DNA of 47,021 nucleotides from the sequence record NC_009514.1; one strand, 5' to 3'. This document shows positions 24,001 to 27,000 of this stretch, piece by piece (position 1 is the first letter of the stretch; every line of letters begins with the position of its first letter). Made by a program: the position numbers. The stretch is from Enterobacteria phage cdtI.

Positions 24001-27000
24001 TAATGAAACAGACAGGCGAGTATCTACCGAACCGTAGATGTTATGGTCATATTGCATAGTTTTTGGGGGAATATAAAGAATTATATTTGAGTATGCTGTT
24101 TGTGACTCTGGGAATAATAACGAGCATTATAATAAACTTGTTTGTTTTTCTGGTTTCGCATTTCCTCATTAATCTTGTTGGTAATATTTTCGTTGCTTTG
24201 TTGTTTCTATTTTTTTATAAAGAAGAGGTGGTGCAGAGGAGGAAATACAGTGGATAAAAAACTAATTGCATTTTTGTGCACACTTATAATTACTGGTTGC
24301 TCGAATGGGATCGGTGATTCACCTTCACCTCCGGGAAAAAATGTAGAATTGGTTGGAATCCCTGGACAAGGTATTGCAGTGACTTCAAACGGTGCAACTC
24401 CAACACTTGGAGCCAACAACACTGAGTTTCCTGAAGTTTCAATAATGAGCACTGGTGGGGCGCTGCTTACTATTTGGGCCAGACCTGTTCGTAACTGGCT
24501 TTGGGGGTATACTCCTTTTGATTCAGTAAATTTTGGTGAGAATCGGAACTGGAAGGTTGTGGATGGGAAAGATGCCGGCACAGTGAAATTTGTTAATGTT
24601 GCCCAGGGGACTTGCATGGAGGCCTTTAAAAACGGGGTGATACATAATACCTGTGATGATAACTCGTTATCTCAGGAGTTTCAGTTACTGCCTTCTACTA
24701 ATGGTAATGTGCTTATAAGAAGTAGTGCCTTGCAGACGTGTATAAGAGCAGACTATTTAAGCAGAACTATATTGTCACCGTTTGCTTTTACAATCACCCT
24801 TGAGAAATGCCCTGGTGCAAAAGAAGAAACGCAAGAAATGCTATGGGCAATAAGTCCACCTGTCAGAGCGGCAAAACCAAATCTGATTAAGCCAGAGTTA
24901 AGACCATTCAGACCATTGCCAATTCCACCTCATGACAAACCTGATGGAATGGAGGGAGTATGAAAAAATTATTATTCCTGTTAATGATTTTGCCGGGTAT
25001 TTCTTTTGCAGATTTAAGCGATTTTAAAGTTGCAACCTGGAATTTGCAGGGTTCAAATGCACCGACAGAAAATAAATGGAACACACATGTCCGACAACTT
25101 GTTACGGGAAGTGGTGCTGTTGATATCCTGATGGTTCAGGAGGCAGGGGCAGTACCAGCTTCTGCAACGTTGACTGAGCGAGAATTTAGCACTCCTGGTA
25201 TTCCGATGAATGAGTATATCTGGAATACCGGAACCAATAGTCGCCCACAGGAGTTGTTTATATATTTCTCACGTGTTGATGCATTCGCTAACAGAGTAAA
25301 TCTTGCGATTGTTTCAAACAGAAGAGCTGATGAGGTGATTGTATTACCTCCTCCAACTGTTGTATCACGACCGATCATCGGCATTAGAATTGGTAATGAT
25401 GTTTTCTTCTCAACCCATGCATTGGCGAATCGGGGCGTGGATTCAGGAGCAATTGTAAATAGTGTTTTTGAGTTCTTCAACAGACAAACGGATCCTATAA
25501 GACAGGCCGCTAACTGGATGATTGCAGGAGATTTTAACCGTTCACCGGCTACACTATTTTCAACTCTTGAACCAGGGATTCGCAATCATGTAAATATTAT
25601 TGCTCCACCAGATCCAACGCAAGCCAGTGGTGGTGTTCTTGATTATGCAGTAGTTGGAAATTCAGTGAGCTTTGTTCTTCCTCTGTTGAGGGCCTCGTTG
25701 TTATTCGGATTATTAAGAGGGCAAATTGCCTCTGATCATTTTCCGGTTGGCTTTATTCCTGGAAGAGGAGCAAGAAGATGAAAACAGTTATTGTGTTTTT
25801 TGTTTTACTGCTGACAGGTTGTGCTTCTGAACCTGCAAATCAGCGTAATCTTCTTACTCAGTTTGTCGGCAACAATGCCCCTGTAGACCCTGAACCCAGT
25901 CCAGTATTGGTTAATATCAGAAACGTTCTTACAGGGGGGATAATCCGAAATCCTGTTGGCAGTGACTTTAATGTAAATAATTGGGTTATATCTGAAGTAA
26001 AGACTAATGATTTGGATTTGATATCGGCACCGGGAGGGCATGTTCAGATTAAAAATCCTGATGGCAATGAATGCTTTGCTATTCTAAACGGGCAATTGGC
26101 AGTGGCTAAGCAGTGCTCTGAAAGTGACCGTAACGCATTGTTTACATTTATAACCAGTGATACTGGGGCTGTGCAAATCAAGTCAATAGGAAGCGGTCAA
26201 TGCCTAGGGAATGGAGAGAGCATTACAGATTTCAGGTTAAAAAAATGTGTTGATGATCTTGGGCGTCCTTTTGATACGGTGCCGCCGGGGTTACTCTGGA
26301 TGCTGAATCCACCATTATCTCCGGCAATAATGTCTCCATTAACGAGCTGATCTGGAAAACGCGGCACGTTGTATGCAACTTGCCGCGGTTGGCTGGTAAG
26401 CTTTTTGATAGTGCGAGTATTGAATGATTTCCAGCCGTTACTGATTTTACGTGCTAATTAGTGAACAAACCACTCGTCAGCAGACTCCCAGGTATCTTTC
26501 AGAGTTTCCTGAACAAAAGTTTTAGCTGAATCTTTATCGGCGGTGCGCGTAACAGAAAGGCCATCGTTGCTGGTGGCTTTTACGATCACCTCTACATCGT
26601 CATAACGTTTACTGATGCGTCGGGTTAATTCTTCCTTTAACGCATCCACAGCACCGTTTGGCATTTTAGTCATTTTCTCTTTGGCTATGCAGATCTCAAT
26701 ACGCATAAAAATCCCTCTATACTGTGTTTGTATACAGTATTATTTTTAACTGTATGAATAAACAGTGTCAATAGAACAAAGATTGCTGCATGTACAAATG
26801 TTCTTTGGCTACAAATACACCTACTGATCATGTTCTGCTATGCTCTGATACCTCCAAAATGTACAATCAGCGGCATGAATTTTTCTTTGTACATATGATT
26901 GTACATAATCAAAGAGACAACAATTATGACAAGCCTTTTGGCCGCAGAGGTAGCGAAAAGAAGAACCTTTGCAATTATTTCTCACCCCAATAATTAAGCC

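Follow-up and report, generated by a model that had tools for sequence, protein, structure and literature searches.

The 47,021-nucleotide (nt) stretch analyzed here, sequence record NC_009514.1 of Enterobacteria phage cdtI (called the window in what follows, meaning the whole stretch), reads as a complete lambdoid genome, in which terminase, head and tail genes are followed by an accessory block and then by functions for integration, immunity, replication and lysis. Between the toxin genes of the accessory block and the attachment site lies a small gene similar to dinI of Escherichia coli, which, together with its control region, is the subject of this analysis. The gene order at this place is cdtA/B/C, the dinI-like gene (minus strand), attP, a P4-type integrase gene, a CHAT-domain gene and then the immunity, replication, Q and lysis genes. 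The original prediction had described a dinI-like gene on the minus strand with two boxes of the form CTGT-N8-ACAG, typical of sites for the SOS repressor LexA, directly upstream; both the gene and the boxes were confirmed, at the positions collected in Table 1.

The product of the gene is an 82-residue protein, the similarity of which to DinI is that of a single domain over its full length. It covers the Pfam DinI profile (PF06183) from position 1 to position 63 of 63 with 70.8 bits, for a gathering score of 24.2 (E-value 1.2e-19), is 46% identical to DinI of E. coli K-12 along its entire length (BLASTP) and aligns through residues 1–81 with residues 1–79 of the DinI structures 1GHH and 7YWA of the PDB (7.9e-13). 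It also matches phrog_189, the family of the 'RecA filament binding protein DinI' (4e-31), but only at positions 71–149 of this 151-position profile. More specifically, pairwise alignment with K-12 DinI reveals a conserved TWESAD(D/E)WFV motif, and residues E65, E69, E72, D75 and D76 in the C-terminal helix of E. coli DinI have E67, D71, E74, D77 and E78 as their counterparts here, all five acidic charges being kept. It has been proposed that this negatively charged helix mimics DNA and forms the surface through which DinI contacts RecA (Voloshin 2001, as cited in PMC3121763). Because its score against NF007893, the NCBIfam equivalog model of chromosomal DinI, is 72.5 bits and hence under the cut-off of 111, we call the protein DinI-like and regard it as a paralogue of chromosomal DinI; DinI-like is also the name assigned to it by the Prokaryotic Genome Annotation Pipeline.

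The CTGT-N8-ACAG cores of the two boxes lie at 26722–26737 and 26750–26765. The window contains four matches to this pattern where 0.52 would be expected, a count reached by none of 100 shuffled sequences. The original prediction had proposed to score both sites with a LexA matrix; the heterology index (HI) that we computed is approximate, having been built from 27 E. coli LexA operators and not from the published matrix of Lewis 1994, and it gives 3.4 for the proximal and 4.6 for the distal box (20-mers read on the gene strand), values within the range of the strongest operators among the 27 in the list. When the window was simulated 500 times with a first-order Markov model, a sequence contained on average 0.002 sites with an HI below 5, compared to three observed. 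The boxes had further been termed consensus LexA boxes, which holds for the 16-base pair (bp) core, present as the consensus in both, but not for the full 20-bp consensus TACTGTATATATATACAGTA, matched by the proximal box at 17 of 20 positions and by the distal box at 15.

Elsewhere in the window, the CTGT-N8-ACAG match at 36220–36235 has an HI of about 16, is situated within a coding sequence and has no flanking TA; it was treated as a chance occurrence. A third LexA-type site, TACTGTAAAAATAAACAGTG at 44083–44102, is as strong as the dinI operators (HI of about 4.8) and spans codons 3–10 of an open reading frame (ORF) for a DNA methylase in the late region (44075–45127, plus strand), which follows the Q gene. 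Methylase homologues in Klebsiella phage Kp4866-6 (TACTGTAAAAATATCCAGCA) and in a Providencia phage (CACTGTTAATTTAAACAGTA) preserve it as a good LexA box, though the spacer differs. The promoter search found no sigma-70 promoter just upstream of this site, which might be a LexA roadblock or an operator within the late operon.

The two dinI boxes overlap the predicted promoter and transcription start, as expected of a member of the LexA regulon. The promoter found by scanning is a near-consensus sigma-70 promoter (TTGACA, 18 nt, AAAAAT; 10 of 12 positions matched), the −10 hexamer of which is bracketed by the two boxes, the proximal one beginning 2 nt downstream of it. At the other end of the gene, RNA folding of the minus strand predicts an intrinsic terminator, with a GC-rich hairpin of 28 nt that begins 71 nt past the stop codon and adjoins, back to back, the 3′ end of cdtC, a convergent gene. 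Morons are genes dispensable for lytic growth that are flanked by a promoter and a terminator of their own, and the sequence supports a self-contained, moron-like cassette made of a putative promoter, one gene and a putative terminator.

Table 1. Features of the dinI-like unit and of its surroundings in the window
Feature	Position	Strand	Basis and remarks
DinI-like protein gene, 82 residues, starts MRIE	26458–26706	−	Pfam, PHROG, BLASTP and PDB matches
Shine-Dalgarno sequence GAGGG	26713–26717	−	Read from the sequence; 6 nt upstream of the ATG (26706)
Proximal LexA operator TACTGTATACAAACACAGTA	26720–26739	−	Pattern match, HI 3.4; 13 nt from the ATG; over the predicted transcription start
Predicted −10 hexamer AAAAAT	26742–26747	−	Promoter scan; within the 8 bp that separate the two 20-mers
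Distal LexA operator CACTGTTTATTCATACAGTT	26748–26767	−	Pattern match, HI 4.6; fills the −35/−10 spacer
Predicted −35 hexamer TTGACA	26766–26771	−	Promoter scan; upstream border of the conserved cassette
Putative intrinsic terminator: hairpin CGCGGCAAGUUGCAUACAACGUGCCGCG (26387–26360), then UUUU (26359–26356)	26356–26387	−	RNA fold of the minus strand
nleH (OspG-kinase domain)	21057–21947		Accessory block
cif	22171–22998		Accessory block
cdtA/B/C, type I	24142–26350		Accessory block; cdtC convergent with the dinI-like gene, stop at 26350
P4-type integrase gene	27218–28435		After attP

The unit is well conserved in other phages and has sharp borders. We aligned the upstream regions of seven lambdoid phages (this one, 2H10, PhiR63_1, VT1-Sakai, 1720a-02, PhiR12_5 and BP-4795). 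Their sequences agree almost completely between the −35 hexamer and the gene and bear no relation to one another further upstream. The −10 hexamer is invariant in all seven; the Shine-Dalgarno region is purine-rich throughout and reads GAGGG in five of them. Both boxes are found at the same positions in the six other phages, with gaps of 13 and 41–42 nt to the ATG, the distal box being degenerate in VT1-Sakai and BP-4795 (HI of about 10). On the opposite side, the hairpin region is kept in 2H10, PhiR63_1 and VT1-Sakai, and homology to the relatives devoid of cdt starts at the terminator, around position 26353. In every phage compared, no other gene stands between this one and the attachment site, and its transcription is directed inward; the attachment sites and integrases differ (prfC here, yehV in VT1-Sakai). 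A homologue from a Klebsiella phage (68% amino acid identity) is preceded by a single strong LexA box (HI 2.9) located 17 nt from the ATG.

Phage Ayreon is 98% identical to the window from position 26757 rightwards, a region that includes attP, int and the CHAT gene, and has unrelated genes in place of dinI. Its positions 2990–3010, equivalent to 26757–26771 in the window, retain the −35 hexamer TTGACA together with the initial 5 nt of the distal box, after which unrelated cargo follows, so that an old recombination breakpoint falls inside the operator. The cassette is thus present in or absent from close relatives with sharp mosaic borders, in Ayreon as described and at the −35 hexamer elsewhere, as is characteristic of morons. 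The proposal that the gene is a moron is hence backed, as regards its being an autonomous unit, both by the sequence and by conservation in relatives. The cassette is widespread, and special neither to this phage nor to cdt cargo: counted at a coverage of at least 80%, no fewer than 1413 of 5426 complete E. coli genomes contain it, with as many as eight places per genome, and it occurs in 131 phage records from several enterobacterial genera.

The 3′ untranslated region of the dinI-like gene contains a stretch of about 48 bp (26403–26451) that is 89–98% identical to sequence found where the tail-fibre region ends in HK97, HK106, mEpX2, phi80 and lambda-like phages. The phages sharing this stretch showed no other match to the dinI region, and it is probably a conserved mosaic joint used in cargo exchange.

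The unit had also been said to be adjacent to attP, and this proved correct. In lysogens, homology to the window stops at 26987, with prfC coming next, and the shared 14-bp att core, ATTATTTCTCACCC, is at 26973–26986, about 200 bp from the unit. The cdt–dinI segment is found with 100% identity in two complete E. coli genomes, at the end of a prophage that abuts prfC, with cdt annotated as type I.

On the phage side, the att core forms the end of a diverged 5′ part of prfC carried by the phage (26927–26986, with the ATG at 26927), and integration would therefore rebuild prfC with an N-terminus, a ribosome-binding region and an upstream sequence supplied by the phage. The core is flanked, at 26790–26910 and at 27144–27210, by at least eight 8-mers that contain TGTACA (ATGTACAA or TTGTACAT) and occur in both orientations; they are probably the arm-type binding sites of the P4-type integrase.

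Altogether, we consider it very likely that the locus is an SOS-regulated, self-contained DinI-like cassette that a lambdoid, Cdt-I-converting phage carries at its att-proximal end and that LexA represses until DNA damage occurs. Several points weigh against this view: (i) the −10 hexamer, AAAAAT, is imperfect; (ii) the U-tract of the terminator comprises only four U residues, so that the strength of termination is uncertain; (iii) the HI matrix is approximate; and (iv) the transcription start, LexA binding and expression are all predictions at this locus. From the behavior of relatives and from established DinI biochemistry, we infer that LexA binds here, that damage induces the gene and that its product binds RecA, as follows. 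In an undamaged lysogen, LexA dimers sitting on the two high-affinity operators, one in the promoter spacer and the other over the transcription start, would occlude RNA polymerase at an otherwise strong sigma-70 promoter. Upon DNA damage, RecA filaments would form and trigger LexA self-cleavage, the promoter would be derepressed and the 82-residue protein made; it would then bind the RecA filament via its acidic C-terminal helix and modulate the co-protease activity of RecA, as chromosomal DinI does. Operator strength and timing are generally related within the SOS regulon, and the presence of two strong operators accordingly suggests tighter repression and later expression than for the single-operator chromosomal dinI gene.

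The repressor of the phage (34560–35234, minus strand; 224 residues) has a Peptidase_S24 domain (1.5e-26), resembles the C-terminal domain of lambda CI and displays a VQA-G site, the serine of a GDSM motif and the lysine of a TFKRL motif. As far as its sequence tells, it looks cleavable, with all the hallmarks of RecA-stimulated autocleavage, and phage induction presumably depends on such cleavage. DinI-type proteins could in principle modulate RecA-stimulated cleavage of the phage repressor, and the idea put forward in the original prediction, that the gene tunes RecA activity and prophage induction, is plausible here because the repressor bears these hallmarks. The net effect on cleavage of the CI repressor, on UmuD processing and on co-resident prophages is speculative. 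One such scheme, which we regard as unlikely, is a damage-dose filter: the DinI-like protein, made late on account of its two strong operators, would bind RecA filaments and selectively slow the cleavage of slow substrates (such as CI-type repressors and UmuD). It would in this way determine at what threshold or when this phage is induced and, acting in trans, do the same for every co-resident prophage with a RecA-cleaved repressor. If this were true, the phage would be wired to LexA, counting the third site at 44083–44102, at several independent points besides CI cleavage. For Stx and Cdt-I phages, with their RecA-cleavable repressors, an effect on the induction threshold would bear on toxin release after treatment with DNA-damaging antibiotics, and the present locus, a clean cassette that has two strong operators, lends itself to an induction-threshold test.

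It is possible, although we would not bet on it, that the cassette serves the host instead: extra DinI made during the SOS response would limit UmuD cleavage and mutagenesis or stabilize RecA filaments, and so help the lysogen to survive, while prophage induction would not be affected to any meaningful extent. Such a role fits the finding that non-polar dinI deletions in Gifsy-1 and Gifsy-3 caused no significant change in induction (PMC3121763), as well as the listing of the dinI cassette under 'fitness' cargo in Citrobacter prophages (PMC6456863); likewise, a cassette shared by phages that are unrelated in their immunity and integration modules, and numbering as many as eight copies per genome, is what generic fitness cargo would look like. 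However, the Gifsy result does not settle the matter for this phage, since the Gifsy prophages are induced through antirepressors and not through repressor cleavage, and the gain from an extra copy is not obvious in E. coli, which already has a chromosomal dinI gene.

We find it very unlikely that the promoter is the remnant of a dinI–antirepressor operon of the Gifsy or 186 tum type, the antirepressor payload of which was displaced by the cdt insertion. The terminator-like hairpin, 71 nt past the stop codon, is conserved in relatives devoid of cdt, the next gene is the convergent cdtC, and a phage with a repressor that looks self-cleaving would not need an antirepressor. These features have to be set against the facts that Gifsy dinI is the first gene of a LexA-controlled dinI–antirepressor–irsA operon and that the C-terminal half of 186 Tum is DinI-like (PMC3121763), and against the coverage of positions 71–149 only in the 151-position phrog_189 profile. 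A search for an antirepressor gene co-transcribed downstream of dinI found none, the longer minus-strand ORFs at 26197–26378 overlapping cdtC and lying beyond the terminator; the genes downstream of dinI in VT1-Sakai (H0002) and 2H10 (gp26, YnaE-like) matched no antirepressor family and no Pfam-independent family with a known function. An operon of the Gifsy type was therefore rejected, for want of a partner gene and in view of the cleavable-looking repressor.

Even less probable, in our opinion, is an action of the LexA sites on attP or prfC, whereby they would modulate integration and excision or the expression of the phage-rebuilt prfC gene in lysogens. Despite the short distances involved (the prfC start codon that the phage supplies, at 26927, is 160–205 bp downstream of the boxes, and the outermost TGTACA repeat, at 26790–26797, is about 19 bp from the dinI −35 hexamer), the same unit, with homology from −35, stands beside unrelated attachment regions and integrases in other phages (yehV in VT1-Sakai; others in BP-4795 and 1720a-02). 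Since dinI keeps its boxes whatever the attachment region, they are part of the dinI unit rather than of attP; no plus-strand promoter passed the promoter scan, either overlapping the LexA boxes or between them and the phage-borne prfC start. Finally, the possibility that the two palindromes are chance matches in intergenic DNA, which is AT-rich here (36% GC), is negligible and effectively refuted by the statistics (0.002 such sites expected per 47 kb) and by conservation across phages and genera, besides the exact placement of the boxes relative to the promoter elements.

Apart from the dinI-like cassette, the window contains several other regions worth mentioning. A stack of virulence cargo occupies positions 21000–26350, between the tail fibres and the dinI cassette, and consists of nleH, cif, remnants of tail-fibre-assembly genes and cdtA/B/C; its GC content is 36–44%, compared to 55–63% in the tail-fibre genes. 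Directly downstream of int, the segment 28512–30701 (plus strand; GC content of about 32%), common to this phage and Ayreon, encodes a 729-residue protein with a weak CHAT (caspase-like) domain, which may be a defence or abortive-infection protein. Between Q and the methylase gene, an AT-rich cassette on the opposite strand (42054–43442, minus) comprises two genes, coding for a DUF6731 protein of 313 residues and a predicted membrane protein of 147 residues, both in PHROG families without known function; this cassette may be a moron or a pair of defence genes. Within the early right operon, Rfam matches above the gathering score were obtained on the plus strand for isrK (36477–36553) and C4 antisense RNA (36578–36665), inside a long ORF (36117–37265) with Ash and Rha domains, and the region 36477–36665 looks like a P1 immI-like module for an antirepressor or regulator controlled by antisense RNA.

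The presence of a dinI-like cassette with LexA boxes in this phage is ordinary and already known, as E. coli prophages commonly carry such cassettes. Annotations of LexA-controlled dinI homologues at lambdoid prophage ends go back to the VT1-Sakai genome, more than 20 years ago: record AP000400.1 names the homologous gene product DinI and marks both a promoter and a 'LexA protein / putative SOS box'. A 2012 paper in Nucleic Acids Research explicitly mentions that phage CDT-1phi has a DinI homologue (PMC3439906). The same cassette, with an identical or near-identical gene, occurs in VT1-Sakai (H0001), 2H10, Lys8385Vzw, mEp460, CP-1639 and many Stx1 and Stx2 phages; 2H10 and Lys8385Vzw encode the same protein (100% identity), and many Stx phages one that is 94–99% identical. 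These phages share with the Cdt-I phage the promoter/operator layout and the att-proximal, inward-facing position of the gene, but the left neighbor is cdtABC here and a tail-fibre gene or other cargo in those phages. Moreover, only the proximal box is annotated in VT1-Sakai, where the distal one is degenerate, whereas both are strong in the Cdt-I phage.

Chromosomal DinI of K-12 (b1061; 1GHH, 7YWA) is likewise a single-domain protein, of about 81 residues, with an MRIE N-terminus and an acidic helix containing WESAD(D/E)WF, and its gene is likewise LexA-regulated from an operator near the start codon. K-12 dinI has one operator, however, ACCTGTATAAATAACCAGTA, located 19 nt from the ATG and overlapping the −10 region, whereas the phage gene has two, flanking the −10 hexamer. 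The dinI genes of Gifsy-1, -2 and -3 are also prophage-borne and lie directly behind a LexA box. In their case the box is known to be functional and induction has been established experimentally: the protein accumulates after mitomycin C treatment (Lemire et al. 2011, PMC3121763), and nalidixic acid raises the transcripts of the Gifsy dinI homologues 4.6- to 23-fold (PMC8072944). These three homologues have one box each, 19 bp from the ATG and with an HI of 3.9–5.3 (PMC8072944), and lie downstream of replication genes, unlike the gene of the Cdt-I phage with its two boxes beside att; Gifsy-2 DinI is only 42.5% identical to the phage protein. In addition, the Gifsy operon encodes an antirepressor needed for induction, the repressors being uncleaved, whereas the gene of the Cdt-I phage has no downstream partner and the repressor of that phage looks cleavable. 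Finally, Tum of phage 186, of which Fels-2 and PSP3 have split versions, is another product of a LexA-controlled phage gene that contains a DinI-like domain, and phrog_189 spans both of its halves; compared to this 146-residue protein, the antirepressor function of which resides in the non-DinI half, the Cdt-I phage protein is without that half.

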